A stretch of DNA of 64,000 nucleotides from contig JAAYJV010000075.1 in the NCBI GenBank assembly GCA_012522755.1, positions 2,276 through 66,275 of the forward strand. The letters run 5' to 3'. Position numbers and translations under genes: made by a program. The notes under the pieces were generated by a model, which did not search any database, was not told the origin of the DNA, and worked only from the letters and a program-made list of their open reading frames with translations. The DNA is from Candidatus Hydrogenedens sp. (GTDB taxonomy: Bacteria > Hydrogenedentota > Hydrogenedentia > Hydrogenedentales > CAITNO01). Numbering within the stretch: position 1 is the stretch's first letter; each line of letters begins with the position of its first letter. Of the stretch, positions 17,640-55,276 are shown piece by piece.

Positions 17640-17667
17640 AGGGCTGACGACTTTGAGTCGCGCATCT

Positions 17668-37069: not shown

Positions 37070-37110
37070 GCAGGCGCTATTCTAGCAAGGAAAGCCGTTT
37101 AAATACAAGA

Positions 37111-37345
37111 GAATTGAACCACGGAGAATTGGACCACGGAACACACTGAACACACGGAAAAAGACTTTTGAAGATGGATAGTGGATTGAAGGATTAAGCA
37201 CAGAGGAGAAAGTTTCTTTTAATTGTTTTATTTTGCTTTTGTTTGGGTTGATTAATATGGTTGATGACATGAAAGAGATACGCAGGTAATATTATTCACT
37301 GGATTAAGACCTCAGAAGAAATTGACCTGGTTCAATTTCTTGAAT
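37111..37345. repeat. Family B TIR element, copy R1 (short variant)
   Basis: A full left TIR (GAATTGAACCACGGAGAATTGGACCACGGAACACACTGAACACACGGAAAAAG) and conserved core, an internal deletion, and a truncated right end (ATTGACCTGGTTCAATTTC). Confidence 0.8.
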
Positions 37346-37350
37346 ATCTT

Positions 37351-39465
37351 CTACCGTGATAATTTGATAAAGGGGCTGGCATGTCCTGAAGATGTTATCG
37401 TCAATGAGTCCCGACTGCGCGTAGCCGCCACGAAAAGCAGTGAACGTTCCCGCACGTTGTGTTCTTGTTGTGCCACAGGATCGTCGTCAATCCCTTTTCG
37501 CTGATAGGGGATTACACCTTCGTTTACTCCGGCGAGAATGACACAGGGAAACTCAAGCCCTTTCACCCGATGCATCGTCGCCAGACGTACACCAGGCTCG
37601 GAGCCATCGCTGTCCTTGTCCAGAATGGCCGTATTGAACCCAGCCTCCTGCAATACCGGCTGATATTCTGTTTTCAGCATACGCGCATTACGGGCGGCCA
37701 CACAGATATCTTCCTCAGCGCGTCCGTGACTCAGCAGTTCCCGACAATGCTGCACCAGAAAGTCCTTCTCCTCATGCAGGGAATGAAAGAAATGGATATC
37801 CGGTTCCGGCCCGTTAAAGAGCGAGGTATAACCTGCCTGATCATCGATCCCGCCATCCAGATCATCCACATCAATGCCGTGCAACAAGGCCAATGCCCAG
37901 TTCTTGATCTGCTCTGTAGTCCTGTAATTGATCCGGAGCTTGTGCGACCGTCCCCGGATATTGATATCACAGCGTCCCAGCACTACCGACGGCCCATAAA
38001 TACGCTGGTGTGCATCGCCGACAATAAACAGATCATTGGGGTTTTCCGGAACCAGGGCCCGGATGAGCCGCCATTCCTCTTCAAAAAAGTCCTGCGCCTC
38101 ATCCACCACCACAGCCCGATAGGGCAGCCGCGACTTGCCTTCCAGATACAAGCGGGTCTGACGGATCACATCACTCCATTCCACTTTCCCCAGTTCCTTC
38201 AAGGCATCACGATACTGTTCAAAGACCTCCCACAATGCGGCACGATCTTTTCTGGATAAGGTTTTTCCCCGCCCGACACGCCGTACCTTGAGATAGTCCT
38301 GTCGCGTCTGCAGATCATTATTCTGAACGACTTTTTCCCATTCATCCCGCAAAAAGTGGAGACTCCATTCGATTTGGCCCGTATAACCGACAGCCCTGTT
38401 CCAACATCCGGCCCTGTCATCATCTGTCGCAATCTGAAAGGAGAAGCCCTGCATCTTCATGAATTTCACGGCCCAGTCATGCAAATGTACCACTTCGATT
38501 CTCTTGAACTCATCGCCACAGAGATTCTTCAGATTCTGTTTCACATCCTTTGCCAGGTTCTTGGTAAAGGTAGTCACCAGAATACGATCCGTACTCTCCG
38601 TAAATACTTCCCGTACAAGATAGCGGGCCCGATGCATGGCCACCACCGTTTTACCTGTTCCCGCTCCACCCGTCACCTTTGCGGGTCCATTGAACCGTTT
38701 CTCCACCATCCGTTTTTGCGCCGGGTGCAGAAAAACACGCCATTTTTCCAGGGGCGCACTGAGAATGGCTGTCAGATCATGCTGCGAATTGATGGTAACA
38801 AAACGTCTTTCCGAGTCGGGATGTTTCAACGCCGCCGTAAAGTCATTTGTATTGACAGCTGCAACCTTGGCCGTACCCGCAGTTACCTCCCGAACCTCTT
38901 CCGCCGTGAAACCCTCAGCCAGCCATCTCAAAGCTTCAGCTGATTCTTCAGGCAAATGCTTCTCCAGCTCATACAAAGCGTTCCGGTTTTTCAATGCACG
39001 TACAGAAGGCATCAGCACGGCGGGCACCCCCACAGACGCCAGGTCCCGATCACTCACATGAGTAAAGAGTGCTTCCGCTGTTTCCGATACAGACTCTTCC
39101 TTCCGAGCCTCAGGCATCTGCTCAGCCGCGTTGACATTCACCACTTGCAGCGCACCCGTCGTTGGATTTACATCAAAGACACGTTCACCGGCCCATTCCA
39201 TGGCCTCATCATGATGATCCACCCACAAAAGGATATAGACATTCCCCCGTTCCGGATGCAATACAATACCCCGGTAATCGCGGCTGATCCGCACGGTGCG
39301 TATCTTCTCATCCCGCACAGCATGGATCTTCTCGTAATTGATACCCGACGAAGTCGGATTCTCACGGAAGCGCTCCATAAATTCGCGTACCCGTCTTTGC
39401 TGCGACCTGGGTATGCGCGAAAAGGCATTCAGAAAATCACTGGATATGGCAACAGTAGGTTTCAT
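37351..39465 (-). CDS. UvrD/Rep-type SF1 helicase with an N-terminal RelE/ParE-like domain
   Basis: 704 aa. Walker A GGAGTGKT (nt 38641-38680), VVVDEAQDF, and C-terminal MHRVKGLEFPCVIL and LLFVAATRSRD. The first 95 aa (RISRDYRGIVLHPERGNVYILLWVDHHDEAMEWA) look like a RelE/ParE toxin fold. Confidence 0.75.
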   Translation of the reverse strand: MKPTVAISSDFLNAFSRIPRSQQRRVREFMERFRENPTSSGINYEKIHAVRDEKIRTVRISRDYRGIVLHPERGNVYILLWVDHHDEAMEWAGERVFDVNPTTGALQVVNVNAAEQMPEARKEESVSETAEALFTHVSDRDLASVGVPAVLMPSVRALKNRNALYELEKHLPEESAEALRWLAEGFTAEEVREVTAGTAKVAAVNTNDFTAALKHPDSERRFVTINSQHDLTAILSAPLEKWRVFLHPAQKRMVEKRFNGPAKVTGGAGTGKTVVAMHRARYLVREVFTESTDRILVTTFTKNLAKDVKQNLKNLCGDEFKRIEVVHLHDWAVKFMKMQGFSFQIATDDDRAGCWNRAVGYTGQIEWSLHFLRDEWEKVVQNNDLQTRQDYLKVRRVGRGKTLSRKDRAALWEVFEQYRDALKELGKVEWSDVIRQTRLYLEGKSRLPYRAVVVDEAQDFFEEEWRLIRALVPENPNDLFIVGDAHQRIYGPSVVLGRCDINIRGRSHKLRINYRTTEQIKNWALALLHGIDVDDLDGGIDDQAGYTSLFNGPEPDIHFFHSLHEEKDFLVQHCRELLSHGRAEEDICVAARNARMLKTEYQPVLQEAGFNTAILDKDSDGSEPGVRLATMHRVKGLEFPCVILAGVNEGVIPYQRKGIDDDPVAQQEHNVRERSLLFVAATRSRDSLTITSSGHASPFIKLSR

Positions 39466-39614
39466 AAGATATTTCTCTCACAGAAGGCGGCCCTGTCCTG
39501 TCCGATCGGCCGTCCCATTGTTTTTAAAAGTCTTTTGAATTAAGTACAACCAGTTTATCATGAAAAAGAGCCTGTCCCGGAAAGAGTGAAAAAACACGGC
39601 ACACTCCTTCAGGT

Positions 39615-42600
39615 TTATGACAAAGCATCAAGAATCTCTGTTGTTCTGTCCGACCTGCCCACCAGAAACACCAGCCACTCCTGTTCTTCAAAAGCCTCCA
39701 CAAATTCCTCCTGATCTTCCGTAAGCACAGCTACCCGCCCATCCATCCAGGCCAACTCCGCTTCGGCACAAATCCGACCGTTGGCACCGGCCAACTCAAA
39801 GCCTATCTCAGGCGGTGCTTTGCCAGCCGCCGCACAGCTCCTCAACAGTTCGTGAACCAGCGGATCCGACAACTCCAGCGCCTCGGTCCACACCTCCGAC
39901 AGTTCTCCGCCAGACTCCGGCAAGGACGGATCGGGAAGGGGCGCAGCTACCACGCCGATTTCTCTTTCTTCCACCAGTGCACGACTCACCCACTGGAAGC
40001 CCGGCAGAAACTGCAAGAGATTGGCCGTACCCAGCATGCACCGCCAGATCTCTTTGTAATTTTCTTTTTGTCTGGCAAAGCGATCATCTTCTATTCGCAG
40101 AAGGGCTTGAATCTCCTCCCACCGGAAGACGGCGGCCGCTTTCGCATCACAGGAAACCAGCAAAGCAAGCAGGTTCATCTCAAAGAGCCCGGCCAGAGGG
40201 CCCAGCATCCCCTTCACAGGATCCGCCTCATGCCAGTCCGCAACCCTTTGCGACAGCATTGCCTCGTAACAGGCCTCCACCTGCTGTTTATCCCGGCAGC
40301 TTGTCAAGGCACTCAAAGTCAGCGCCGCTATGTTCCGTCCCCAGTGCAGGCCATCCGGATTCATGAGATATTCCAACAGAAGTTGTACCCCTGTCGTTTC
40401 AACCATCATGCCATCAAAGATACCATCGGCTTCCACAATCTTTCTGGCAACATTCTTCCGGACAGCCAGATTGGAGAAAAAAGTGACGGGCCTGCCCGCC
40501 TCATCCTTTTGCTTCTGTTCCGAAAACTCCCTGATATCATCCCAGCAGAGTGACCACACCCGAAAACGGCCGGAACGCAAAATGGACATGCGCTTGCGGA
40601 TATCATCGGCAATGCGCGCCTTTTCCTCTTCAGGCATGACATGATAACGGAATCCATCGAGAAACACAGCCACAGGAAACAGCCCCGCCTCTTCTCTGGC
40701 CGGCCAGAACACGAAGTCCGGCCTGGAAGAAAGCGCTACTCCCTGGGCATCCGTAAGCGATACCTGCGGCTCAAGAATCCATTCCCGCCCTCCGAGGGTC
40801 ACACGATGACAGGGCTTGCCCTGACGCAGATACCGTGTCCACTTATACTGCACTTCTTTAAAATGCTCCGCCAGAATATGAATGAACCGCCCTTCCAGTT
40901 CGCTCTCAACAAAATTATCCGGCAGTTCAATGTTCTCAAGCGTCTGAACCTCTTCCAGCTCGTCCCAGTGCTCAAGAATCTTTTCCAGCATTTCAATACC
41001 CAGTTCCCGGGAAATATTCTTCAGAGAATGCTGGCCCTGATAAGCATACAAACAGCGGTAACAGCCCTTCGCCCCTTCGCGCTGGCGACATTCACAGCTT
41101 TTCAGGGTATTCCACGCCTCAACCAGCAGGCTCTTGAACCCTTCAGGCTTATGCACAAATTCTTTCAGATATCCCGTTCCGCCGGGCACCTTGTCATACA
41201 GCACCAGAAAATGTTTGGACTCCCCATCGCCGCCCAGTCCCGGCACGGGCTGCTCACGAACCAGCAGATGCAGGGGATTGCCCTTGAACTTCTTCTTCAG
41301 CCCCAATTCCAGGCAGGCCTTGAAAGTCGCAAGCTTCTCCTCCGCCTCCAGAATGGATACAGGCAGTAAAATACGGATGGCCTCCGATTCCAGCTGTCTG
41401 TAAAGATAGACCTTCACCCAGGGATCTTCCGATTTGCGACCTTCCCACCGGCACCAATACCGGTGTTTCGGATCTTCATTCTTCTTCTTACGTACCACCC
41501 CGCAATAATGACAGAGTACAAAGCCATCTTCAGATACGGGACTCCCCGCCACCTGCATCATTTTATCGCGGCCGCTGCTTACTCCGAAATTCACCTCACG
41601 AAGTGTCACCTCTTTCAGATACTCAAAACCAAAAGGAAGACTCCGGATCGTATAGCCCCTGTCCCAGTTCTCCTCCTGCACATCAAAGAAATCAGAAAGG
41701 GTGTAATACTCTTCTTCCCGCTCATCTTTCTCATCGCCGCTCCGGCTCCTGTGATCCGGAACACGGGCCGACACACGCCGTAAAGGAAGGGTCATATGCT
41801 TCTGTCCGTGATCACTCCAGTTTTCACTGCCGCATTTCGGACACATGCTCTTCCCCTTATCCTCAATGAGCGTCTCCACATAGTGGCATTTGTCACAAAA
41901 ACGCCATTCCTTCAAAAGATATTCGCCGCCCACCTCCGTTGCCACCTGATCCACAACCACCTTGCGCGCCTCCGCATAGAAAGTGTTGAAGGGTGCCAGC
42001 TCGCGTATGGCCATACCCGCCCCGCGGATATACTCATGGCTTTCCATCTCCGGCTCACCTTCCGGGCCCTGTACTCCGTATATCTCGGAATACAGTTTCA
42101 CCCCTGTCTCCGGAAAAGCGTAATTGGGAATCAACCCTTCATCCGTAAAGAGGTTCAGCGGATATTTTTCACGGAGTTCTTTCATGGTGCTGTACAGCAT
42201 GGAACGCTCCATTTTGAGATCCCGCAGTCGTTTCTTCTCATCCTCCACCGATGTCGGATCCTCTTCAACCTGTTTGATCGCACTGAGCACACGAGCCATC
42301 TGCTGCTGGAGCCGCTTCAGATCGGCCTCTTCCTTTTCCAGACAACTGATAAGCTGCTGCTCATAAAGCTCCGACTTCGCATAGTCCCGGAGCCGCTCCC
42401 GGTTCGGTTCTGTCACCACCTCATCAAAATAACTCAAAAAAAGATCACACAGGGCAAGTCCATGTTCTTTCGCATACTTCAGAAAGGAAAGGGGATACCC
42501 GCCCCTGCGCCACCCCGCAAGCATGAAGCCCACCTGTGCGGGCATCACGGCCTGACGATCCTCCCGCGCCCAGCTGTCCAGGCAAAAAGCCAGAAACTGA

Positions 42601-45600
42601 CGTTTCAGCATCTCCGGTGCATCCAGATAACAACCCGGCGGATTCACGCTTCCCCCGATCATCTCAAATGGATCTTCAAAGAAAAAAAGATCATGCGGCT
42701 TCATATTGGCAAGAGCCAGTACAAGCGCATTCCCCGTCTTCCGGCCGCCCCGGCCGATGCGCTGCAGATAATTCGTAGCCGTAGGCGGGATGGAGCAGAC
42801 CATGACCGACGACAGATCTCCCACATCAATACCCATTTCAAGCGTTGGCGTACAGGCAAGCAGATTGGGAGCATCAGCCACTTTCCCCGTCTTGAACAGA
42901 TCTTCCACCTTCTCACGGCGCGCCCGGTTCAGAATACTCGTATGCTCCTGGCTGAAGATGCGGGCAACCTGGCCACGACGGTAAAATTTCACATAGAAAG
43001 AATCTCTTCCTTCCTCATCAGCCTGATAAAGATCCTCCGATAACCAACCCAGACAGGGCATCCCCTCCCAGAAGCGAAGATCGTCAGCCGCAACAGTCAA
43101 GGCGTGATCCATCCCGGAACCGCGCAAGAAGGCCGTATGTCTGGTGATCAGATAAGCATCCGGATTGATGGCATAAACCTCGTCCTTCGTCTTCGGGATA
43201 AGGGTCAGCACACCCACCTTCGCCAAAACAGCCACAGCATGTCTGTACAGCGCATTCACGTCACCAGCTGTATCAGGAATCTGCAAAGAGCGATGGACCC
43301 AGTTGGAATGCCAATTGGCACTGCCTCCGCCGAAGCGCAAAAGAGGGTCAAACACTGTCTCGCCCAAACCCAGAGAAAGAAAACGGGGGAGTCGGCTTTC
43401 AGAACTGAAAGGCGACATGAGAGGCTCATTCTTCTTCGTCAGGAAATACCTGTTCCCCTGATTCTGGCCATAGCGCTTCAACAGCGGATCATACACGGCT
43501 CCCCGTTGACGGGCCCGGGTCAGCCAGCCCAGCAGGAAATAACGGAGCCGCTCACGGCTGATGTCTGCAAGATTCGCCTCATGGATACGCAGCGCCTCCT
43601 CCAGCGCTTCCGCCGCCTCATCCAGAAGCGCCGGATCCAGGCAGACCGTGGAACACCCCACCTTCTCAAGACTCCGGCCCGTGCGACAGTTGAGCCCGAA
43701 CTCCATGCTGATCTCCCAGCGGAGCCGCTTCATGAATCTCTTCAAAAATTTCTTGTCCGGTTTCCTGTCCGGCCCCGTGATAAACGCCGTATATTCCGGC
43801 ATGGGCGCCAGATCAGGCGGCAAAAAGGTGGCGATGAGCTTTTTCCAGTCGCCATCCATCCTGATCAGCCAATAATCCACCAGTTTGTCACCGAAATCTT
43901 TCAGAGGCATCGCCCCGGACTCCTCTTTCTCAAGAAGGGTCTGTAATGCCGTACGAAGATTGAAACGAAAAGTACGTGCCGCAAAAAAGCCCGACCGATG
44001 ACTCGCATCCTGTACGGAATCCGTAAAGGCAAGCATCTTCTTGTCCCTGTTGAAAGGACTGATATACAGATGGCTCACAGCCACAGACGAAAGACTCGCC
44101 GCCTGAGAACCCACCACAGACAAGGCATGTTCGCTCTCACAGCGCGGACACTGCTGCATGTCCCGCGGAAACTGTCCCTGGCTCATCCGCCTGTGCGCTG
44201 TCACAGCCACTCCCGGCCCCCCGCATTGCTGACACACAGGATTGTGGCTCAGTTCCAGACAGCACGAACATAAAAAATCCTTCGTACCCGTCAGGGCATC
44301 CCCTTTTTCATGAGGAAAGAGATAACAAGTTCTGGCGCCCCGGTCAAAAAATTCCCTGTAAATTTCCCGCGGATCTTCGCTCACGCGACTGTCCGCCTTC
44401 CGTTTGAAAGTCAGCCAGCCCGTATGCCCGCAGTCACGACAATAGACCATGGGCAAGCCTGTGATCTCCGAGTTCAAAGGCACCTCATCGCGCCAGAAAA
44501 ACGCCGGCTCCGGAGAGATCCGGCGCATGAGCCGCCTCACCTCCCGTACCCACAGCTGAACCTGACAGGCCAGGAAAGGCGCCACAAAGCCGTCAAAATC
44601 CTTTTTCGATTCGTTGATAATGCTCAGAAAAGACTGGAGCAACGCATTCTGTTTCTCTACGGAAAAAGTTTCAAAGACAGGGTCCCACGCCGCAATTCGC
44701 TTACGCCATTCGCCCCATTCGGTCACACTGTTTTCCAGATTCGTCAGAATCGTGCGAAGAAAGCTGTGCTCACTCAGAACCCGGCCCCGCTCCAGAGGGC
44801 TCAGCGTCGGATCCTGAAACCACAAGCCGCATTGACGTGACACATAGTCCTCAATACTTTCCTCCAGCCCCGGAAGCAGCTCGTCAACGCTCTTCACCTC
44901 CGGAAATTTGTTGTCATCCAGCGAAGGCGCATCCAGATAAACCGACATTTCCTCACGCTCTTCGCTGATCACAGCCGCCAGACCGAAGCGCTCCCCGAAA
45001 AGACGCTCCGCAAAGGCCACCAGATCGCCCTTGGCCTGCGAAGCATCACCCGCCAGCGTCGCACTCGTACCCACACAACAAAGCCCTCCGGGCTCAATGC
45101 CGAGCTTCGCCTTCAAACGCCGGATCAGACAGGCCACATCACTGCCCTGCGCTCCGTCATAACTGTGAAGCTCATCCAGCACAAGATAACGTAAGCTCTT
45201 CCCGCTTGTATACTGCCAGATCTTCTGATCCTCCGGGCGGATCAACAGATAATCCAGCATCTTGTAATTGGTGAGCAGAATATCGGGAGGTTGATTGCGC
45301 TGGGTATCACGGTCCGTAATCACATGATCAGGACCCATCGTCGTATGACGGGCCACATCACCCTCACGTTCGCCCACATACATGCCCACACGCACTTTCC
45401 CCTGCAGGCGTTTGTCACCCCAGATCACCTCCGCAAAACGTTTCGCCTGGTCCGAAGCCAGAGCATTCATGGGATAAAGAATCACCGCCTTCACACCCGG
45501 CTGACGGATCGCACCATTTGCCATACGGTAACAATGATCCAATAAGGGATAGAGAAAACACTCCGTCTTACCCGAGCCCGTGCCACTGGTCACCACCGTC

Positions 45601-45890: not shown

Positions 45891-45903
45891 GAAACAACCT
45901 CTT

Positions 45904-46407: not shown

Positions 46408-49400
46408 TTAAATCTTCTATAAGCTTCCCTCATATCCTTTTCACGGTCGTTCTTCTTGAAGGGAGGCACATATACCCGTTCCATCCGTGGTTCCATTTTA
46501 GGGTCTTCCCAGCGGATACCCACACTCCTCTCACCTCCCGGCAACACCACCTCGCCCAACAAGGCCCCATCCCCACGGTACCCGCTCCGCTTCAAAGGCT
46601 CACGAATATCCACCTCCATCTGCTCCGCAAGCTTCAATACCGCCCCAGGAACCAGCCGCCCTAAACGATCATAGCGGTTGTTTTGTTCATAACCTTGCAG
46701 CACAGAAAACTGAACCCGGTAAATCGTAATCAATTCCTCCTCCGTCAGATCCAATGCCAGAGCAGCCAGAGCATCCAGCTCCACCAATGCCTGACGTCGC
46801 TCCAGATCTGTGCGTAAAGCACTCTCCCAAGTCCAGGGCGTAGGCATCAAGGCATTCCAAAGGTCAGCGTAATGAGAGGTGAGGCAGGTCAATTTCAAAG
46901 CACGGGTTACAATTTCCTGATTCAGCGTTTCAGTTGATGGTAACGGGAGTTGCACAAAAGTATCTATGAAAAGATCGCTCTTGCCAGTGGTCTTAATAAA
47001 AAAATCATAGACCAGAGAGTGCAACAAGCCTTCCACCAGACATAGGGTAATATAGTCGTCAAAAACGACGGATAAGACAGTGTTGATGTGTGCAGCTCCT
47101 GGTGGACAAATGGTGGAGATCAATGTCCTTTCACCTGTAGTGTCACACATCCTCCGATGAACGTGTCGGAAAAACTCCGTTACGGCTTTCTCTTTCCAGT
47201 GGGGCGTCTGCTGCTTATACTCCTCAGGGGAACAAGCAGGCAGATAATTCGTTCGAGGCAAATAGTCAGGATCTATGACCGTGAGATCAATGGAGGTATA
47301 ATCAAGACCGTGCTTACAACCTTCATTGGGCGTTTTAGCAAAGGGGGTTCCCACAAAGAAATGAGGACCTGACAGTACCCAGTCCCTGACGTCTTTCAGC
47401 TGCTGCGTTTCCCTGCGGATAATGCCATCCCGTTGGGCATAAGTTTCATCAAACATAACCGTAGAAAAGAACAGATCGTCTAAATCACTCAGACGCCGAT
47501 GTTGGTGGGCTATTTTTTTCAGAACCTGTATAATTTCTTCACTGTGAATAACAGGAAGGCGGGCTTCCAGAGGAGGTGTTCCAGGGGAATCATAGAGAGA
47601 AGCCATGAGCTTCAGCCTGTCTTTATCGATTGTCAGGAGGCGGTGTCTGTGAGGTCGTAATTCCCATTGATTGTTTTCATTCTTATACCCCGGTACATTC
47701 CCCTCTCCATCGTGTTGCATGGAGCCGTCAATGGTGAGAGGATGGAATAGGTTCGACATGTGAAGAAAAGAAATGGGTTTCCCTATTTTATTTTCATATA
47801 TATTTATGCTGTAATGTCTTGTATGACTTATATCAAATAGAATAAGCTCATTGATAAATTGAAAGTGCGCTCTCAGGCGGATATAAAGAGCCTTTCGTAA
47901 ACGCCCTCCCCTGGCGTCGTCATAAACGCCTTCAGGATGAACTAGGCCTATAACTCCTCCTTCGGCTGCGATTTCCCAAGATCGGGTAATGAAACATTTG
48001 TATAGATTGGTTTGAATTTTTTCGAGAAGTGGGTAATTTTGTCGGGCATTGAGAAAAGCTTTGGTGGCCGTTTGTCCCACAAATTCAGAGCAGTATTCTT
48101 TGAGTCGTACTTCCTGAGTCAGATATTTGTGTCTTTGTCGGGCCATGGCGTCAGCTGAGAGTTTTCTGAGGGCAAAGAAAGGCTCAAATTCGGCGAGAAG
48201 GCCTCCTTCATTCCATCCAACCTTGATCCACGGTGGATTTCCGAGGATGAGATCGAAGCCTCCCTTGTCAGCGAAGACTTCCGCGAATTGGAGTTCCCAA
48301 TGAAGGAAGTTTCGTTGTTTTGCAATTTCCTGGACGAGGCCGAGGCGTGGCACATCTTTGCAGAGAGTATCCACATTGACTCTGCCGAATTTTTTTACAA
48401 AGGCCACATGGTCGGCACTGAGAGCCTCTTCCTGCTCCAGACCCATGAAAAGCGATTCCGCATCTCCTCCTGTGACGGTTCCTTTGAGGATGAGCTCCAC
48501 CTCCAGGAGAAAGCTGTCCCGGGTGGGTAGGAGCTCGCTCTGATCCAGAGGCCAGAACCAGAGGGCGCACCAGTAGTCCATGATGAGTTTGAGACGGCGG
48601 AAGGCTGTATAGGGCCGCTGCAGTTCCGCGGCGATCCTGTCCTGTTCCTCATAAAGGGGAGTGGGACTTTGGCGGTGGGGCTGTCCCCAGAGGCGTGGAC
48701 TTTTGGTGGTTTTTGCTACAGCTTCCCGTCTTTCCCGGATGACCTGTTGCCAGAGCTCATCAATGGCGGCACTGAGCTCCAGGAGCTTGTCCGTGTCATA
48801 CTGGTCGTAGGGCTGGCAGAAAGCTTTGCGCCAGGCTGTTATTCCTTTCACTGCGTCGGGCATGAGCTCCCGCATGGCTTTATTCTTGTCAAAGGCGGCC
48901 ATGTCATCATCGGCCACGAGGAAGTGGTATACGCCCTGACGGGGTCTTTCCAGCCATTGGGGCCCCAGGGCGAGGGGGAGGGGGCTGAGACTGAGCCAGT
49001 TGGTTTTTTTGCTTTTGTCGCGCAGATCGGCGGCATCAAAGATCTGACGGCGGGCACCGACGAGGCTGTTTCCCGTGGCTAGGCGCAGGCCGAACCAGGG
49101 ACACTGGCTGCCCCGATGGATGGTATTGAGCCAGAGAGAGGTGCGGGCCAGCTCTGTGGCGATGGGGTTGAGGTCCACGCCATAACAGTTGTGTTCCGCC
49201 AGAAAGGCCTTGACGCGCTGCCGTTCTTCGGTATAGTCGGAAGGGGGGATGAGCTCCCCCGTCTCGGCCTGTTTTTTTTCCAGATAGGCCTGGGCCAACT
49301 GGTTCACACCTTCGTTGATGAAGGCGGCGGAGCCCATGGCGGGTTCGCAGAGGCGCAGCTGGAGGATTTCATCGGCTGTCTTGTCTTTGAGGAGTTCTTT

Positions 49401-51104
49401 GAGGCTGTACTTGACGACGGACTGGGTGAGACATTCGGGAGTATAGTAGGAGGCGGAGCTTTCCCGGTCTCTTCCGGCGAGGCGGAAGATGAAACTGCCT
49501 TTTTCGTATTTCTTCCGCTGTGTTGCTCCGGGGACATCGCCTTCCACGGCTTCCCGGACAAATTCTTCTTCCTTGTAATCGCTGATCCGTGATTCAGGAA
49601 CGAACCAGGCCTGATCCGTTTCGTCGCCGGCCTTCTGGTCGGCGGCCTTCATTTCGTAGAGAGTTTCCTGAGCGAAGAAGCCCGTGTAGGAGAGGACTCC
49701 TTCATAGACGGCACCGAGCTGGTTGATGCCGAGCTGGGCATAGCTGATGCGACCTCTGTCGCGTCGGCCGCCCCTTCTTGTGCCGCCCACCCTGGAGAGG
49801 GAGAGGAGTTGGATGACCTCTTGAAGGATGCTGTTGCGCAGACGCACGGCACTGAGGCGGGGGGTGCGTTTGAGGTCAAAGAGCGGGCTGTTGAGTCCCC
49901 GGAGTGTGAAGCCCCGGTCTATATATTCCGCGACTTCCTCTTCCCGGGCCAGGGTACTTTCCATCTCTGTCTGGAGCGGGTTGTGACCGTCGTTGATGAG
50001 CGTGAACAGTTTGCGCAGGCTTTCGTCGAAGAAATAACCATTTTGCGCTTCCGGCGTGGTGAGGGGAGCCAGCTCCAGATCGCGGAGGGTTTCCAGACTG
50101 TAGCCGAGGCGGTACTCATCGCTTTTCATGGGCGCCACATCGAGCTCGCCGCCCCGGGCTTCGGCATAGAAAAGAAAGAGAAGCCGGTACAGATAGAGGA
50201 GTGATTCTTCCGTCAGTGCCCGTGCCAGTGCCTCATCGCTGAAGACTGCTTTCTTGCCGATGTTCCGCTGATACCACACATATTCATTGCCCAGCAGTTC
50301 CACGGCACGGCGTATGCCATATTGCAGATCGCTGGAAACACTGAAGGCGTGTTTGTGGGAGTTCTCATCGAGGCTGTCATGGAGGGGGAGAGCCTCATCG
50401 GGGTTGATGGCATCACGGCTGAGGAGAAGGGCCGCCGCACGGAGGGTATCTCTGCTGCGACGGCCGAAGAGTTCGTCCAGATCGAAGAGCATGTATTTGC
50501 CCTGACCCCATTTGTGGCGGTCAATGAGATAAATCTCACTTCCTGCGAAGAGGATGAGCCAGCGGGGCTTCAACTCTTTTTGGAAGATGGCGGAAAAAAG
50601 ATTTTCCCAGTTCCCTTGAGCCAGGGAAAAGTCCGCCAGCTCAGAAGAGGTCGGTGGGTTCTGACAGGGAAGAAGGCCCCGTTCCAAAGTGGCGGTGTTG
50701 TCCTCGTCGCGCCGCGTGGGGAAGGGTGCCTCCAGCAGCCAGAGCCAGGGCTCGCCAGCCCGCTGATAGGTGGCGAGGACGGGGATGAGACTCTGGTCAT
50801 CAAGCAGTTCATAGCGCCCGCTCTCGTATTCATAGCCCAGTGCTTCCAGAAGTGCGATGTTGACGGGGCGTGCTTCAAAAAAATTATCTTCCACACGCGT
50901 GGTCTCTTCTGCACGGGCCTTGGCTTTGAAATAAAGCTGGCCACAGGCTGAGAAGGCTTTGTCGGGCGGTATGCACCCTTTCTCTTCCTCTGCAGCGAGC
51001 CATCGGTCTGCGAGTTCTTTCGTGTCTTTTTCAAACAGGGCGTCCAGATAATAGTCACCGTAAAACTCGTTGACGTTGCTGATACCGGTGAGATCCAGGG
51101 ACAT
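46389..51104 (-). CDS. large N6-adenine DNA methyltransferase (gamma class, Eco57I/PglX/DrmMI-like)
   Basis: 1571 aa. SYYTPEC (nt about 49434-49452), LCEPAMGSAAF (motif I, nt about 49321-49360) and LGNPPWIKVGW (motif IV NPPW, nt about 48229-48243). RBS GAGG lies 8 nt upstream. Confidence 0.85.
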   Translation of the reverse strand: MSLDLTGISNVNEFYGDYYLDALFEKDTKELADRWLAAEEEKGCIPPDKAFSACGQLYFKAKARAEETTRVEDNFFEARPVNIALLEALGYEYESGRYELLDDQSLIPVLATYQRAGEPWLWLLEAPFPTRRDEDNTATLERGLLPCQNPPTSSELADFSLAQGNWENLFSAIFQKELKPRWLILFAGSEIYLIDRHKWGQGKYMLFDLDELFGRRSRDTLRAAALLLSRDAINPDEALPLHDSLDENSHKHAFSVSSDLQYGIRRAVELLGNEYVWYQRNIGKKAVFSDEALARALTEESLLYLYRLLFLFYAEARGGELDVAPMKSDEYRLGYSLETLRDLELAPLTTPEAQNGYFFDESLRKLFTLINDGHNPLQTEMESTLAREEEVAEYIDRGFTLRGLNSPLFDLKRTPRLSAVRLRNSILQEVIQLLSLSRVGGTRRGGRRDRGRISYAQLGINQLGAVYEGVLSYTGFFAQETLYEMKAADQKAGDETDQAWFVPESRISDYKEEEFVREAVEGDVPGATQRKKYEKGSFIFRLAGRDRESSASYYTPECLTQSVVKYSLKELLKDKTADEILQLRLCEPAMGSAAFINEGVNQLAQAYLEKKQAETGELIPPSDYTEERQRVKAFLAEHNCYGVDLNPIATELARTSLWLNTIHRGSQCPWFGLRLATGNSLVGARRQIFDAADLRDKSKKTNWLSLSPLPLALGPQWLERPRQGVYHFLVADDDMAAFDKNKAMRELMPDAVKGITAWRKAFCQPYDQYDTDKLLELSAAIDELWQQVIRERREAVAKTTKSPRLWGQPHRQSPTPLYEEQDRIAAELQRPYTAFRRLKLIMDYWCALWFWPLDQSELLPTRDSFLLEVELILKGTVTGGDAESLFMGLEQEEALSADHVAFVKKFGRVNVDTLCKDVPRLGLVQEIAKQRNFLHWELQFAEVFADKGGFDLILGNPPWIKVGWNEGGLLAEFEPFFALRKLSADAMARQRHKYLTQEVRLKEYCSEFVGQTATKAFLNARQNYPLLEKIQTNLYKCFITRSWEIAAEGGVIGLVHPEGVYDDARGGRLRKALYIRLRAHFQFINELILFDISHTRHYSINIYENKIGKPISFLHMSNLFHPLTIDGSMQHDGEGNVPGYKNENNQWELRPHRHRLLTIDKDRLKLMASLYDSPGTPPLEARLPVIHSEEIIQVLKKIAHQHRRLSDLDDLFFSTVMFDETYAQRDGIIRRETQQLKDVRDWVLSGPHFFVGTPFAKTPNEGCKHGLDYTSIDLTVIDPDYLPRTNYLPACSPEEYKQQTPHWKEKAVTEFFRHVHRRMCDTTGERTLISTICPPGAAHINTVLSVVFDDYITLCLVEGLLHSLVYDFFIKTTGKSDLFIDTFVQLPLPSTETLNQEIVTRALKLTCLTSHYADLWNALMPTPWTWESALRTDLERRQALVELDALAALALDLTEEELITIYRVQFSVLQGYEQNNRYDRLGRLVPGAVLKLAEQMEVDIREPLKRSGYRGDGALLGEVVLPGGERSVGIRWEDPKMEPRMERVYVPPFKKNDREKDMREAYRRFKKLNHG

Positions 51105-51127
51105 AAGATCAACCTCATTTATTAGAA

Positions 51128-51631
51128 TATAACCACGGAGAATAGGACCGCAGAATTCAGGTCACACACGGAAGAAATTGGACCACGGAACACACGGAAC
51201 ACACGGAAAAAGATTTTTGAAGATGGATAGTAGATTGAAGGGTTAAGCACAGAGGAGAAGACTTCTTTTGACTTGTTTTTTTTGCTTTTGTTTGGGTTGA
51301 TCAATAAAGTTGGTGACATGATGAAGATGTAAAGATAATAGCATTTACTTGAGGAAAAGAAAAAAGACAAAGAAAAGAAAGAAATATAAAGCCTCTGTTT
51401 CCCGTGTATTTACCTCTTATTGTTTTATGCTTCTATACGGGTTGATTAATATGCTTGATGACATGAAAGAGTTACGCAGGGAATATTATTCACTGGATTA
51501 AAACAAAAAAAGAAAAAGAAATATAAAGCCTCAGCTTCCTGTGTATTTACCTCTTATTGTTTTATGCCTTCAAACTCTTTTTCCGTGTGTTCCGTGTGTT
51601 CCGTGGTCCAATTCTCCGTGGTTCAATTCTC
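51128..51631. repeat. Family B TIR element, copy R3 (full length)
   Basis: 51177-51212 is perfectly complementary (36 nt) to 51577-51612. The core is collinear with R2 and R5. Confidence 0.9.
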
Positions 51632-51632
51632 T

Positions 51633-54500
51633 TCATTGTGTGCCTATAAATAATGCAGTCAGTTTCAAATACGGTCTTTCCACCACTTCAAGACTGTCGC
51701 GGAGCCATTCTTTGCGGATTTTGCTTTGAGCTTCCACCCGATTCTCTTCCTTCCGGAGCCGCTCGGCTATATCGCGGCGCAATCTTCCCGTGTCGCCTCC
51801 ATACATGAACCTGTCCAGCTCTATCTTCTCCATAGAACGGCGCCGCCAGCGATCGAAGCGTTTGTTGTCTTCCTGGAGCCGTTCCTCCAGTTCGCGGATG
51901 CGACGGCCCCGGAGTTGAGCCAGATGTTCCAGTGCTTTGTCCACTACCTCCTGTCGCTGCTCCTGCAGGGTTTCAACCGCTTCTGTATCATAGTCCCTGT
52001 TGGGCAGGCCCTGTAGAAAGCCGGATGTATCCAGAAATTCTTTGAGAGGCTGGATTCCCAGAAAACGCTTGCTCTGATAGCGGATGACGAACCAATCCAC
52101 AATGACAGGCTGGCTGCGCCTGTTGGAAAGAATGCCCTGGAAAAGCCAGGCGCTGTTGTCGGGCGAGAGCTTGCCGGTGCAGATGACGGGAGCTTCGTGT
52201 CGTTGAAAGCGGCAGATGACCTTATCCAGCAGCCATTGCATGGCCGGATGCAGTTCCCAGAGGAGCTGTGCATCGGGCCAGGTGGACAGTTCTTCTTTGG
52301 AAAGACGGCGCGCATCGGCTATGGCATCCTGAACACGCTGTCGATCGCTGGTGAGGAAGAGTTTGTTGTTTTTTGGCCAGGCTTCTCTGGGCACGAAGTG
52401 AAAGCGCCGCTGCAGGTCTTCGGGCATGGCCATTTCCACAGAGGGATGATCAGGATAGAAATCGGGATAAGGCAGGTCGCTGTTTTCTTCACAAAGTTCG
52501 TCGAAGGCGGCCCGAAGAAAGCTGAGGTCGTTTTCATATAGAGAGAGGGTGATCCCTGTATCTTCCGGGGGTGGCGGCGCGGCAAGTTCGCTGTCCAGAA
52601 GAAGAGAAAGAATGCCCAGGTCTTCGGGTTCCTCCGGGTAGATGTCTTCAGGGTTGCCGCCGAAATCCAGCTCGCCCTGAAGCACTTCCGCTTCTTCCTC
52701 GGCACTGTATATCCCGGTGAGGGTCGTGGCGTCACCAATATTTTTGTAGACGTATCTTTCCTTTTCGACAAGTACTTTGAGAATGTGCATGTCGCCCCGG
52801 AGCGAAGGATCGTCCGTTCTTGTGGTGAGATAAACGATGATGGGATTCTCATTCTGGCCGTAACGGTCGATGCGGCCATTTCGTTGTTCGAGCGTGATGA
52901 GAGACCAGGGGATGTCGAAGTGTACGAGATGATGACAGAAGTGATGGAGGTTCACTCCTTCGGAGGCCACGTCTGTGGCAAGAAGTATCCGGACAGGGGC
53001 ATCTTTTTTGCCGAAGTCTTCCACGATGCTCATCTGCTCCGTATCGGAAAGGGCTGCATGGAAGAGGGTGATCGCCTCATCGCGCAGATCATAGTGGCTG
53101 GCCAGTGCATGGCGCAGCATTTTCAGGGTACAGATTCTTTCGGAAAAGAGCAGTACCCGGGGACTGTCTTTCAGCCCTGTCCAGCCGATGGAGTCGAGCC
53201 ATTTGAAAAGAGCCTTCACTTTTCCGCAGGGCTGTTCCACGACCTGTTGCAGTTCGTTGTAGAGCATGTCGAGAATCTGCCAGTCACTTTCCAGATCGCT
53301 CCTGTTCACAGGTGCATCATTAAGCTTTTCATCAATAGTCTTCAGGCGATTTTCCACCGTTTCCAGACAGGCATGAGGACTCGATAAAAAGGCTTTGAAC
53401 AGGGTGGTACGGAAAAGGATGTCCCGACCACGCTTGTTTTTTTTGTTGAGTGTATGGAACTGGAGACCCTTGAGGCGCTTCAGTATACCTTCTTCCCGGT
53501 CCGTGGTGAAGACGGGGAGGGGCATGGCTTCCCGTTCCCTGAAATGTTCGCCCACCTCATGGCTCACGTCTTTTTTGAAACGACGGACAAAGAGACCCTT
53601 GATTTCGTCCCGCGAATAATCCAGAGGGTTGGCAATGGCCGTGGGGTCGAGCATGTTCATGAGATTGGCGAAGCTCTCGGGCTTGCCGTTGTGGGGAGTG
53701 GCGGAAGTGAGGATGAGGGAATCGCAGGTGCGGGCCAGAAGGGATGCCAGACGGTTGCGCTGCGTGTCCGCATTGGCTACATGGTGGCATTCATCAATGA
53801 CAATGACATCCCATTTGCAATCTTCCAGAAAAGTGCGGTAACGGCCATCATTTTTCAAGGTGTCTATGGATATAATGGCGCGGTTGAAGTAGTAAAAAGG
53901 ATTCTTGTTCGCCGGGATGCGCGCGCGGACACGCTGCAGACCGATGGAATCGAGACGGACGAGGGGGATACTGAAACGGGTCCATAATTCCTGCTGAAAC
54001 TGGGTGAGCAGTGATTTGAGGACCACAACCAGAATGCGATCGCCACGGCCCCGCTTGATCAGTTCGGAGAGGAGAACGCCCGCTTCCAGAGTCTTGCCGA
54101 TGCCTACGCCGTCGGCAATGAGTATACGTGGACGGAGGGCCGACAATGCCATGGATGCCGGGGTAAGCTGATAGGGCGCAGGGTTCATGGCCGCCTGGTG
54201 ACCCAGATAAATGCGCTCGTCCGCAGGAGGACTGCGACGAAGAAGACTCTCCAGAAAAAGGCGGGAACGACGGTATTGCGGGGAGTCATCTTCAACCAGG
54301 TCAGTCTTTTCAGGACGCATTTCCTCGACCTGGTCGAGGACGGTGAGAAAAGTGGCTTCGTGGTCTCGTACCAGCTCTGACATGCCCACTACCTGAAGAG
54401 CGGAACCCCCTGTGTTCACAGAGTGACAGGCCTTAACAAGCCATTCCTCTCCGCGTACCACTACGCGTGCACCAGGCGCAAAAACTCCCGTCTGTGCCAT
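51633..54500 (-). CDS. SNF2-family helicase (DrmD-like)
   Basis: ADGVGIGKTLEAG (nt 54091-54116), VIVIDECHHVAN (nt 53781-53815), TSATPHNGK, LLATDVASEGVNL and EQRNGRIDRYGQ. I prefer the ATG at 54500, 8 nt after GAGG, over the tracked GTG at 54509. Confidence 0.85.
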   Translation of the reverse strand: MAQTGVFAPGARVVVRGEEWLVKACHSVNTGGSALQVVGMSELVRDHEATFLTVLDQVEEMRPEKTDLVEDDSPQYRRSRLFLESLLRRSPPADERIYLGHQAAMNPAPYQLTPASMALSALRPRILIADGVGIGKTLEAGVLLSELIKRGRGDRILVVVLKSLLTQFQQELWTRFSIPLVRLDSIGLQRVRARIPANKNPFYYFNRAIISIDTLKNDGRYRTFLEDCKWDVIVIDECHHVANADTQRNRLASLLARTCDSLILTSATPHNGKPESFANLMNMLDPTAIANPLDYSRDEIKGLFVRRFKKDVSHEVGEHFREREAMPLPVFTTDREEGILKRLKGLQFHTLNKKNKRGRDILFRTTLFKAFLSSPHACLETVENRLKTIDEKLNDAPVNRSDLESDWQILDMLYNELQQVVEQPCGKVKALFKWLDSIGWTGLKDSPRVLLFSERICTLKMLRHALASHYDLRDEAITLFHAALSDTEQMSIVEDFGKKDAPVRILLATDVASEGVNLHHFCHHLVHFDIPWSLITLEQRNGRIDRYGQNENPIIVYLTTRTDDPSLRGDMHILKVLVEKERYVYKNIGDATTLTGIYSAEEEAEVLQGELDFGGNPEDIYPEEPEDLGILSLLLDSELAAPPPPEDTGITLSLYENDLSFLRAAFDELCEENSDLPYPDFYPDHPSVEMAMPEDLQRRFHFVPREAWPKNNKLFLTSDRQRVQDAIADARRLSKEELSTWPDAQLLWELHPAMQWLLDKVICRFQRHEAPVICTGKLSPDNSAWLFQGILSNRRSQPVIVDWFVIRYQSKRFLGIQPLKEFLDTSGFLQGLPNRDYDTEAVETLQEQRQEVVDKALEHLAQLRGRRIRELEERLQEDNKRFDRWRRRSMEKIELDRFMYGGDTGRLRRDIAERLRKEENRVEAQSKIRKEWLRDSLEVVERPYLKLTALFIGTQ

Positions 54501-54577
54501 GAATTTCACCTCGGTGTATCATTGCAAACAAAAAACATCATAACCTCAAATATCCTAGCATACCACAGCAGGAAGAA

Positions 54578-54901
54578 CAACCACGGAGAATTGGACCACG
54601 GAACACACTGAACACACGGAAAAAGACTTTTGAAGATGGATACTGGATTGAAGGATTAAGCACAGAGGAGAAGATTTCTTTTAACGTGTTTTATTTTGCT
54701 TTTGTTTGGGTTGATCAATAAAGTTGATGACATGATGAAGATGTAAAGATAATAGCATTTACTTGAGGAAAAGAAAAAAAGAAGAAATATAAAGCCTTTG
54801 TTTCCTGTGTATCTACTTCTTTTTTTTTATGCCTTTATTTTCTTCTTTCCGTGTGTTCCGTGATTGACCTGGTCCAATTCTCTTCATCCGTGGTCCAATT
54901 C
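54578..54901. repeat. Family B TIR element, copy R4 (single-unit variant, about 0.32 kb)
   Basis: It has both TIRs but only one copy of each internal direct repeat. It ends at the GxxExxY stop codon. Confidence 0.85.
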
Positions 54902-55276
54902 TTACAATACAATCCGTTCTATCTCCACTCCGGGATAATGTCCAAAATTTACCAGCAACCCCAATTTCAATTCCGTAACCTTCAAATAATTCATCACCTG
55001 AGCACGGTGCTCAGCTGTCAGCACCTTCACCGCTTTCAGTTCAACAAGAATCTTGTCAAAGCAAAGCAGATCCGGCACAAACTCATGCTTCAACAGTATC
55101 CCTTTATATCTCAGCGGATACCGCTTCTGTGTATGAAAAGGGATGTCTCTCGTTGCCAATTCTTGTTCAAGACAGCTCTGATACACCATCTCAACATAAC
55201 CATGGCCCAATTCCTGGTACACCTCATATATGGCCCCCCGAAGAAGGTAACTCTCTTCCTTGTACAGCAACGACAT
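54902..55276 (-). CDS. GxxExxY protein (PD-(D/E)xK nuclease superfamily, TIGR04256-like)
   Basis: 125 aa from MSLLYKEESYLLRGAIYEVYQELG. It has the GxxExxY motif, then PDLLCFDKILVELK. RBS AAGGAGG lies upstream. The tracked longer start at 55354 reads into repeat R5. Confidence 0.8.
   Translation of the reverse strand: MSLLYKEESYLLRGAIYEVYQELGHGYVEMVYQSCLEQELATRDIPFHTQKRYPLRYKGILLKHEFVPDLLCFDKILVELKAVKVLTAEHRAQVMNYLKVTELKLGLLVNFGHYPGVEIERIVL

Follow-up and report, generated by a model that had tools for sequence, protein, structure and literature searches.

A probable ARMADA Type II anti-phage operon, interspersed with repeat elements, in a Candidatus Hydrogenedens contig

Introduction

The ARMADA family of defence systems rests on two 2025 preprints, one of which, from September 2025, describes the Type II operon armABCD (Bell et al. 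2025, PMC12458937), the other being a study of EHEC OI-172 that deals with ARMADA II of E. coli O157:H7 / NCTC 12900 (bioRxiv 10.1101/2025.09.22.677730). Validation of ARMADA II, achieved in 2025, is confined to E. coli (PMC12458937), in which protection needs all four genes (PMC12458937), is direct and non-abortive (PMC12458937; bioRxiv 10.1101/2025.09.22.677730) and requires the Walker A and B motifs of ArmA and ArmC, the Walker A motif of ArmD and the NPPW motif of ArmB (PMC12458937). Like BREX, ARMADA needs its methyltransferase motif for defence and not just for self-protection (PMC12458937). For the C-terminus of ArmC in ARMADA II an active Vsr-type PD-(D/E)xK nuclease is predicted, in many cases with inactivated nuclease-like domains behind it (PMC12458937).

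ARMADA is described by its own authors as DISARM-related (PMC12458937). Class 1 DISARM has the composition drmD-drmMI-drmA-drmB-drmC (Ofir et al. 2018, as summarised in PMC12458937), and it is to this system that a preliminary description had likened the locus presented here, on account of its order of SNF2, adenine methyltransferase, helicase and DUF1998.

Results

We analysed a window of 64,000 nucleotides from a Candidatus Hydrogenedens contig, in which five minus-strand reading frames are present where the preliminary description had placed them, with the sizes and motifs quoted for them, next to a tRNA-Leu(CAA) gene at the island edge (36983-37069, minus strand). Judging by sequence, the genes at 37351-54509 very probably make up a complete anti-phage operon of ARMADA Type II, with its four genes armA-armB-armC-armD intact. 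Their content, order and domain architecture correspond gene for gene to the published definition of ARMADA Type II (PMC12458937), and all four lie on one strand (minus) in an order identical to that of E. coli Sakai (ECs_5261-5264) and B. cereus L002. In pairwise BLASTP, ArmA, ArmB, ArmC and ArmD align essentially end to end with the Arm proteins of E. coli O157:H7 at 40, 42, 33 and 46% identity, respectively (37-47% in global alignment), and the experimentally probed E. coli Arm residues, from ATPase, SAM-binding and NPPW motifs, are conserved here in eight cases out of eight, those that defence requires included. The succession of SNF2 protein, methyltransferase, YprA helicase and UvrD helicase is kept in B. 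cereus, with spacers of 12-19 bp, and recurs in three metagenomic relatives, where 0-3 accessory genes separate armB from armC; armC and armD are neighbours in 6/6 loci. The accessions of the B. cereus and other loci have no match in the accessible part of the supplementary tables of PMC12458937. Assignment to Type II as opposed to Type I rests on ArmD and gene order.

The gene armA (51633..54509, minus strand; GTG start, with an in-frame ATG at codon 4) encodes a SNF2/RapA/BrxHII-like helicase of 958 aa with Pfam SNF2-rel_dom and Helicase_C domains and the motifs DGVGIGKT and DECHH. The protein aligns over its full length with E. coli Sakai ArmA (ECs_5261; 672 bits), with K139 (Walker A) and D239 (Walker B) conserved (K136 and D236 in E. 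coli), and it matches the DrmD (3.3e-100) and BrxHII (2.3e-56) profiles of PADLOC and the DrmD (3.4e-101) and RapA (4.5e-44) profiles of NCBIfam. Next in order, armB (46389..51104, minus strand) encodes a PglX-like gamma-class N6-adenine DNA methyltransferase of 1571 aa (Pfam Eco57I) that carries YYTP, CEPAMGSAAF and NPPW, aligns over its full length with E. coli ArmB (ECs_5262; 1157 bits), conserves G591 of the SAM motif and N956 of NPPW (G605 and N971 in E. coli) and retains an intact C-terminal motif, PPFxKxDRExD. PADLOC reports a full-length match to REase_MTase_IIG (PDLC03614, 1.4e-265), besides DrmMI (1.6e-52) and weak PglX matches. A Type IIG restriction-modification enzyme is a single polypeptide with its own endonuclease and methyltransferase that acts alone. 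ArmB shows no nuclease domain by Pfam, and proteins of its type always occur within the four-gene operon in the B. cereus and metagenomic loci examined; the REase_MTase_IIG profile probably already includes ArmB-type sequences.

The largest protein, ArmC (2091 aa; 39615..45890, minus strand), is a YprA-family DExH helicase with a fused OB-CON-DUF1998 portion and a C-terminal nuclease-like region. Pfam recognises DEAD, Helicase_C and MZB (DUF1998; residues 1527-1614, E 5.6e-10) in this one reading frame. The SNF2 and DUF1998 domains anticipated by the preliminary description are both found by profile search, and the fusion of DrmA-like and DrmB-like parts is real. ArmC aligns over its full length with E. 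coli ArmC (ECs_5263; 1096 bits), K108 and D239 being conserved, and shows only local helicase-motif matches to E. coli DruE (ECs_5260; 136 bits). Its best PADLOC match is DruE3 (2.8e-109), with DrmA reaching 1e-19 in Helicase_C only. Eight CxxC pairs are distributed between RecA1 and RecA2 (484, 541, 553, 581), over the OB/CON region (1332, 1350, 1460) and in DUF1998 (1610); they would correspond to the zinc-binding modules that ARMADA II ArmC carries between its RecA folds and in its OB region (PMC12458937). By these comparisons ArmC would belong with the ARMADA ArmC proteins and not with Druantia DruE or DISARM DrmA.

Residues 1662-1767 of ArmC contain a block, ESELE...RPDFV...DGFxYH...DDxxKR, that is invariant in 46 homologues and that hhalign aligns with residues 43-70 of E. 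coli Vsr, which form its catalytic core, at E 6e-4 and a probability of just 28%. An AlphaFold2 model of the C-terminal 452 aa (pLDDT 88.6) comprises three alpha/beta subdomains, and as a whole it retrieves nothing below E 0.4 in Foldseek; a profile of the Vsr-like block finds no relevant match among PDB sequences, Pfam returns nothing meaningful for isolated sub-regions of ArmC even with E values of up to 10 allowed, and a single one of 22 homologous blocks matches a Pfam family (MTES_1575, E 0.011), with nothing otherwise significant. A Vsr-type nuclease is thus weakly suggested for the ArmC C-terminus.

[quoted passage not shown] Residues 3-700 align with E. coli ArmD (ECs_5264; 609 bits), and Walker A K272 and Walker B D455 are conserved (K266 and D454 in E. 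coli). The N-terminal part (residues 3-110) aligns with the N-terminus of E. coli ArmD, and an AlphaFold2 model of residues 1-115 (pLDDT 88.5) retrieves in Foldseek exclusively RelE/YoeB/YafQ/HigB/ParE toxins among its top 40 PDB matches (best E 4.8e-5, probability 1.0), with TM to target of 0.65-0.71; Pfam, applied to the isolated N-terminus at E up to 10, misses the domain. Modelling therefore provides independent confirmation of a RelE fold. The UvrD-like gene is a core component, one without which E. coli is not protected (PMC12458937), and not, as had been proposed, one of two extra genes.

The other supposed extra does lie outside the system. This GxxExxY / PDDEXK_3 gene (54902..55276, minus strand) encodes a protein of the PD-(D/E)xK group, as the preliminary description had it (TIGR04256 1.1e-39, PF13366 4e-39), with no PADLOC match; in none of the other ARMADA II loci that we inspected is armA preceded by a PDDEXK_3 gene. 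It has a repeat-element copy on either side and a coding GC3 skew of +0.61, versus -0.21 for the adjacent armA. It is an unrelated small inserted gene; like the repeat elements, it arrived later and is no component of ARMADA.

These elements, together with the RelE-like N-terminus of ArmD and the nuclease-like C-terminus of ArmC, had escaped the preliminary description. An AT-rich element with palindromic ends, 0.2-0.5 kb long, occupies every intergenic gap but that between armC and armD. Repeat searches and alignment, which assign no strand, delimit it at the armB/armC junction (45900..46413, 514 bp, 33% GC; repeat families D1-D7, inverted pairs I17 and I20), where armB takes its final codons and its stop from the right end of the element; at the armA/armB junction (51124..51633, 510 bp, 36% GC); at the GxxExxY/armA junction, in a short form without one internal 137-bp unit (54572..54908, 337 bp); upstream of the GxxExxY gene, where the island ends on the right (55309..55792, 484 bp, 30% GC); and, as a half copy consisting of the left part, at the left edge between tRNA-Leu(CAA) and the armD stop (37107..37330). 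Unlike in E. coli and B. cereus, elements of about 0.5 kb break the operon at two of its three internal junctions, an interruption that could affect co-expression. As RNA, the ~50-nt terminal inverted repeats of the copy at 51124..51633 form one long stem (MFE -151.8 kcal/mol, z = -8.0 versus shuffles).

The 25-nt hairpin arm of the element is common to many phyla. Megablast of the window against 119 genome stretches with the hairpin motif gave no match, and the internal part of the element had zero exact-pattern matches in JGI metagenome contigs. An association of the hairpin motif with GxxExxY genes was rejected, since such a gene lies nearby in only 1/119 loci. A Rfam search of the island returned the tRNA only, a sigma-70 scan found no convincing gene-strand promoter inside the elements (the weak matches being mostly antisense), the island edges show neither target-site duplications nor a tRNA-derived direct repeat, and the gaps between island genes hold no ORF >83 aa.

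An origin-type switch in GC3 skew falls inside armB; the skew is -0.2 for armA/armB and +0.3 for armC/armD. The flanking host genes share this polarity, so the break resembles a chromosomal skew switch and not two imports. As to features of oriC, the window contains no perfect DnaA box, with no cluster near 46-47 kb, and dnaA and dnaN are absent from it. A mosaic operon was also considered: in a comparison of ArmB segments with 45 relatives, of which the closest is 64% identical, the same relatives were closest in all four segments, leaving mosaicism without support at the protein level in this sample.

Discussion

The resemblance to class 1 DISARM that the preliminary description had recognised is borne out to the extent that we are dealing with a related methylation-plus-helicase defence cluster. 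Of the two readings it offered, an undescribed DISARM derivative or a distinct system, the first fails, and the locus very probably joins the already described ARMADA Type II. Both systems place a SNF2 protein and a large N6-adenine methyltransferase ahead of a DExH helicase with DUF1998, and both presumably discriminate self from invader by methylation. In class 1 DISARM, however, DrmA and DrmB are separate adjacent genes, whereas helicase and DUF1998 share a single 2091-aa ORF here; the separate PLD protein DrmC is replaced by a fused nuclease region, predicted to be of the Vsr/PD-(D/E)xK kind; and an additional RelE-UvrD helicase is present, which is essential in E. coli ARMADA II. The absence of a PLD-type DrmC, already remarked upon, extends to all five island proteins, none of which has a PLDc match by Pfam, and the flanking genes are housekeeping genes. 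The fused DrmA/B, the missing PLD gene and the UvrD helicase, listed earlier as departures from DISARM, are defining traits of ARMADA II (PMC12458937).

It is accordingly very improbable that the locus is a class 1 DISARM derivative with a drmD-drmMI-drmA~drmB fusion that lost DrmC and gained accessory genes. Such a reading could invoke the authors' own "DISARM-related" label (PMC12458937), the parallel between helicase plus DUF1998 and DrmA plus DrmB, the match of the methyltransferase to DrmMI, and the fact that DrmD is the best PADLOC and NCBIfam match of the SNF2 protein; yet the curated NCBIfam scores stay far below their cut-offs (DrmD 340 versus 610 bits; DISARM_DrmAL, for DrmA, 21 versus 999), the DruE profiles reach ~1e-100 as against 1e-19 for DrmA, ArmC falls on the Druantia/ARMADA branch of YprA and not on DISARM's DrmA branch, neither a separate DrmB gene nor a PLD gene exists, the UvrD gene is shared with the E. 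coli operon, where protection depends on it, and the family has already been named as a clade of its own (PMC12458937). Membership of DISARM is refuted by those defining features that the locus does not share. The same low credence attaches to a chance juxtaposition, in which a Druantia-like DruE, a Type IIG restriction-modification enzyme assisted by the SNF2 protein, and a lone GajB-like helicase would have come together, the skew break marking two modules. PADLOC (2023) does label the parts separately as DruE3, REase_MTase_IIG, DrmD and GajB, and the GC3-skew contrast is sharp; but the quartet is found together, identically ordered, in Pseudomonadota, in Bacillota and in the metagenomic relatives, all four genes are essential in E. 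coli (PMC12458937), DruH and GajA are absent, the break falls inside armB and not between modules, the flanking host genes keep the same polarity, and the segment-wise ArmB identities show no discordance.

A still fainter prospect, scarcely credible, is a cluster of repair or housekeeping helicases of the MrfA/YprA and UvrD types without a role in immunity. MZB/DUF1998 does owe its name to the repair helicase MrfA, and ArmD matches UvrD-family profiles, yet the NCBIfam repair equivalogs score far under their cut-offs (e.g., PcrA at 110 versus 911 bits), the giant methyltransferase, the SNF2 protein and the fusions to RelE and to a predicted nuclease indicate the defence branch of YprA (PMC12458937), and in E. 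coli the orthologous operon confers protection against phages (PMC12458937).

Other known systems share individual parts. ArmC and the DruE of Druantia type III are sister YprA helicases of ~2100 aa that combine DUF1998 and zinc modules with a nuclease at the C-terminus, a putative one in ArmC, but DruE ends in PLD domains and ArmC in a Vsr-like block, and the island holds no unknown gene of the size of DruH, the Druantia type III partner. The ArmA/ArmB pair resembles BrxHII/PglX of BREX; BrxA, BrxB, BrxC, BrxL and PglZ are, however, missing here, ARMADA using putative helicase-nuclease effectors instead. From Gabija only a GajB-like helicase is present, fused to RelE and linked to armC, without the OLD-family ATPase-nuclease GajA. 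In contrast, ARMADA II of E. coli shares the RelE-like N-terminus of ArmD, an ArmC with fused DUF1998 and PD-(D/E)xK-like block, the lack of a PLD gene and a position adjoining tRNA-Leu(CAA), although the tRNA has the island on its 5' side in the present contig and on its 3' side in E. coli. The two also differ in that the E. coli genes abut or overlap (+2, -1 and -4 bp), whereas distances here amount to 528 bp (armA/armB), 498 bp (armB/armC) and 149 bp (armC/armD), and in that the present window contains no neighbouring Druantia III or Zorya II, integrase or satellite-like mobile element. The present host, moreover, is not a proteobacterium.

By analogy with DISARM, BREX and Druantia III, ArmB together with the SNF2 translocase ArmA would N6-methylate adenines within a host-specific motif, thereby marking self DNA, and ArmB may, like PglX in BREX, share in the recognition of unmodified DNA. 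ArmC would load onto ssDNA-containing or unmodified invading DNA by means of its OB-CON-DUF1998 canopy and zinc modules, translocate as a DExH helicase and then cut through its predicted C-terminal Vsr-type PD-(D/E)xK nuclease, which would stand in for the separate PLD nuclease DrmC of DISARM. ArmD, an SF1 helicase of the UvrD/GajB kind with a RelE-fold domain, might help to unwind or process the target, or else gate the activity.

It is also conceivable, albeit unlikely, that the ARMADA II operon has been remodelled in this lineage, with the elements acting as insulators, processors or junctions for swapping modules, and with the skew switch denoting a chimera or an origin. If so, a MITE-like element at both island edges and at both junctions flanking armB could insulate or process individual cistrons, which is conceivable because its RNA form folds into extended double-stranded stems. 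The element could further provide a site of recombination at which modules are exchanged, and the skew switch could mark a chimera that arose when two ARMADA copies recombined homologously or underwent inversion. A replication origin within the defence island ranks as a less likely cause of the switch than a chimeric operon. Unless whole-genome data raise their standing, neither the repeat elements nor the skew switch are more than a minor curiosity.

These results illustrate that a reading from sequence alone can rightly spot a system that is DISARM-like yet distinct, but also that calls of this kind need to be checked against the defence literature of 2025-26, since PADLOC (2023) splits ARMADA II into DruE, Type IIG, DrmD and GajB. 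Returning to the preferred reading of an intact ARMADA Type II operon, such a divergent orthologue (33-46% identity) reveals where the system is constrained, namely in the ATPase motifs, NPPW, the RelE fold and the ESELE/RPDFV/DGxxH block. The flanking genes make the host look like a polysaccharide-degrading environmental bacterium, and the locus hence extends a newly defined defence family to an organism of this apparent lifestyle.

Identity of the defence locus

The gene cluster that the preliminary description had read as a class-1 DISARM-like block with a non-canonical parts list is not DISARM, because the NCBIfam models of that system fall well under their curated cut-offs (340 bits against 610 for DrmD, 21 bits against 999 for DrmA); the seemingly non-canonical list is exactly the make-up of ARMADA Type II. 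The strict gene order of the latter runs from ArmA, a BrxHII/RapA-like SNF2 helicase, through ArmB, a PglX-like methyltransferase, and ArmC, a YprA-like helicase with a predicted active Vsr-type nuclease at its end instead of an accompanying PLD gene, to ArmD, a GajB-like UvrD helicase to which an N-terminal RelE-like domain is fused (Bell et al. 2025, PMC12458937). Recognizing a distinct DISARM-like architecture in raw sequence was a correct and non-trivial call, but the suggestion that it might be undescribed does not stand, the system having already been named.

All five minus-strand open reading frames noted beside tRNA-Leu(CAA) (36983-37069) are present with the coordinates and sizes first assigned to them, and Pfam and NCBIfam searches uphold the domains that had been read from motifs. 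These genes are armA (51633-54509, 958 aa, SNF2-rel_dom and Helicase_C), armB (46389-51104, 1571 aa, Eco57I-type methyltransferase), armC (39615-45890, 2091 aa, DEAD, Helicase_C and MZB, the latter equivalent to DUF1998 and spanning residues 1527-1614), armD (37351-39465, 704 aa, UvrD-helicase and UvrD_C) and a GxxExxY gene (54902-55276, PDDEXK_3/TIGR04256) whose mechanical ORF extends to 55354. The reported lack of a PLD gene also holds, as Pfam and NCBIfam detect no PLD domain in the five island proteins and none is found in the gaps or the flanking genes.

The PADLOC 2023 profiles assign the parts of the cluster to four different systems. The large helicase matches DruE3 (2.8e-109) and DruE1 (9e-100), DrmA aligning with it over Helicase_C only (1e-19); for the methyltransferase, a 'Type IIG' profile aligns over the full length (1.4e-265), far ahead of DrmMI (1.6e-52); the SNF2 protein is DrmD-like (3.3e-100) and the UvrD protein GajB-like (5.5e-38). 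Comparison with the validated locus of E. coli O157:H7 Sakai (ECs_5261-5264, i.e. z5899-z5902) gave BLASTP alignments that run end to end for ArmA (40% identity, 672 bits), ArmB (42%, 1157 bits) and ArmC (33%, 1096 bits) and over residues 3-700 of 704 for ArmD (46%, 609 bits); against E. coli DruE, the match of the window ArmC is local, covers helicase motifs only and reaches 136 bits. Moreover, the eight residues mutated by Bell et al. (PMC12458937) are all kept, E. coli K136 and D236 of ArmA corresponding to K139 and D239 in the window, G605 and N971 of ArmB to G591 and N956, K110 and D234 of ArmC to K108 and D239, and K266 and D454 of ArmD to K272 and D455. The C-terminus of ArmB is complete and retains the conserved PPFxKxDRExD motif. 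The window locus is thus a divergent and apparently intact new copy of ARMADA II, a system type that is not itself new and for which experimental validation already exists elsewhere.

Full-length relatives of the large helicase, at about 2100 aa, number in the thousands; gene neighbourhoods were inspected for six of them, and in all six the UvrD gene follows the helicase. In Bacillus cereus (41% identity), genes for an SNF2 protein of 968 aa, a methyltransferase of 1509 aa, a helicase of 2096 aa and a UvrD protein of 705 aa are separated by spacers of 12-19 bp, and global identity between the window Arm proteins and these counterparts is 43-50%. The order SNF2-methyltransferase-helicase-UvrD is likewise found in three metagenomic relatives (50-54% identity), where zero to three small accessory genes separate methyltransferase and helicase.

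Terminal domains and proposed mechanism

Pfam detected no RelE-like domain in the ArmD N-terminus. Residues 1-115 were modelled with AlphaFold2 from 45 homologues (pLDDT 88.5); the Foldseek matches of this model in the PDB are uniformly RelE, YoeB, YafQ, HigB and ParE toxins (best E 4.8e-5; TM to target 0.65-0.71) and include 3BPQ, the HHpred match of the authors of PMC12458937, so that on the predicted structure ArmD does carry the RelE-like N-terminal feature of the family. Within residues 1662-1767 of ArmC, ESELE, D1725 (in RPDFV), D1745-G, H1750 and D..KR are invariant in 46 homologues, and hhalign places 'SRPDFV...AVFLDGFRYH' on the catalytic core of E. coli Vsr, 'GRPDFVV...VIFTHGCFWHH', albeit weakly (E 6e-4, probability 28%).

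Separately, ArmC residues 1999-2078 (~39654-39893) match positions 283-360 of 375, the C-terminal part, of the PADLOC profile for ZorE2, the Zorya II HNH protein (E 4.9e-9), a similarity in sequence which suggests that the extreme C-terminal subdomain of ArmC is common to ZorE. ARMADA II and Zorya II systems co-localize in E. coli O157.

In E. coli, ARMADA II requires all four genes as well as the ATPase and NPPW motifs, and its protection is direct and not abortive (PMC12458937); it also synergizes with Druantia III. The window itself gives a parts list and catalytic residues, and a mechanism may be proposed by analogy with DISARM, BREX and Druantia III. ArmB, together with the SNF2 translocase ArmA, would mark host DNA with m6A and have a role in recognizing unmodified DNA; ArmC would engage invading or ssDNA-containing DNA, translocate and cut it through its putative C-terminal PD-(D/E)xK domain; and ArmD might contribute SF1 unwinding, its RelE-fold domain conceivably serving a regulatory or RNA-directed function.

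Repeat elements within the island

One AT-rich element (30-37% GC) occupies all gaps of the island except that between armC and armD, as a half copy at 37107-37330 (224 bp) and as full copies of 337-514 bp at 45900-46413, 51124-51633, 54572-54908 and 55309-55792. The full copies are ~85-95% alike, all five copies share the same orientation, and the ends are inverted repeats of ~50 nt (AACCACGGAGAATTGGACCACGGAACACACTGAACACACGGAAA...) that, as RNA, form one long stem (z = -8.0). Every copy fits exactly between the upstream stop codon and the downstream ribosome-binding site, and the final few codons and the stop of armB are supplied by the adjoining element. No ORF longer than 83 aa occurs in the gaps, no target-site duplication was seen at the elements, no Rfam family matches them and their internal part has no match in JGI metagenomes. 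Outside the island, the 64 kb hold a single weak fragment (18066-18115), and the arm operons of E. coli and B. cereus, unlike that of the window, have no such spacers.

The junction between armB and armC, where the window carries one of these elements, is a recurrent insertion site among metagenomic ARMADA II relatives: DuOB and two DUF488 genes occupy it in two loci, another relative has two unknown genes there (551 and 306 aa), and a third type is a gap of 635 bp in which a 176-aa ORF runs in reverse.

A 25-nt hairpin arm, ACCACGGAACACACNGAACACACGG, present at 37110-37162 and at the other element ends, recurs exactly in at least 119 species-representative genome stretches (GTDB) of widely separated phyla, from Kiritimatiellia, Verrucomicrobiota, Planctomycetota, Chloroflexota, Acidobacteriota, Hydrogenedentota, Cloacimonadota and Spirochaetaceae as well as archaea (Methanosarcinaceae); among the matches listed, all of the genomes are metagenome-assembled. 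In most cases it makes up one side of a short hairpin between genes, with flanks that are unrelated from genome to genome, and it shows no linkage to GxxExxY genes (1 of 119 loci).

The window holds further intergenic repeat or inverted-repeat families at 1964-2051, 8258-8327, 14700-15460 and 17570-18160, and at 7849-7905 and 15911-15967, examples being GGATCGGTCGGATCGGACGGATGTGGGAGGG, a (GATAGGT)n tract and AACCACAAAGTCACGAAGAGCACGAAG hairpin arms. Two inverted copies of a 142-nt sequence (15157-15298 and 17649-17790) enclose ~2.3 kb whose ORFs have no Pfam match, an arrangement that may be another mobile element.

The GxxExxY gene and the island boundaries

The two genes initially regarded as extra fare differently, since the UvrD-like one is ArmD, a component of the system, whereas the GxxExxY gene does lie outside the core and its protein has no PADLOC match. 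It is flanked on both sides by copies of the repeat element, has its own ribosome-binding site (AGGAGGT) and shows a GC3 skew of +0.61, opposite in sign to that of the adjoining armA; in the other ARMADA II loci examined, no PDDEXK_3 gene precedes armA. It appears to be a small gene that was inserted on its own, a passenger and not a component of the system.

The flanking genes are ordinary chromosomal ones, encoding on the left a GH95 glycosidase, an alpha-amylase-like protein, L-rhamnose isomerase, an rRNA methyltransferase, an MscS channel and a beta-helix protein, and on the right an MshEN-domain coiled-coil protein, UPF0014, tRNA-Leu(AAG), TyrRS, signal peptidase and LepA. Neither flank contains an integrase, a second defence system, a PLD gene, dnaA or dnaN, and the island is therefore delimited to ~37.1-55.8 kb, with ARMADA II alone. 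In the compared stretch of E. coli O157:H7 Sakai (5347126-5391646), the ARMADA II island (SpLE5/SpLE6) likewise adjoins tRNA-Leu(CAA) (leuX), but on its 3' side and with integrases; as the window island lies 5' of the tRNA and lacks an integrase, the coincidence may be fortuitous.

A switch in GC3 skew inside armB

Irrespective of gene strand, the GC3 skew referred to the plus strand is negative in every one of the 14 genes that lie between 18 and 45.9 kb and positive in each gene further right, from 46.4 to 64 kb, the GxxExxY gene excepted. The change point falls at ~46865, inside armB at codon ~1414, and codons ~960-1400 of that gene have a low GC3 (0.32-0.5). Such polarity is that expected of a replication origin or, alternatively, of a recombination or inversion breakpoint; the window contains neither a DnaA-box cluster nor dnaA, and ArmB gives no signal of mosaicism at the protein level. 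The arm operons of E. coli and B. cereus are uniform. What remains novel about this copy of ARMADA II is the set of repeat elements in its gaps, together with the switch in GC3 skew.
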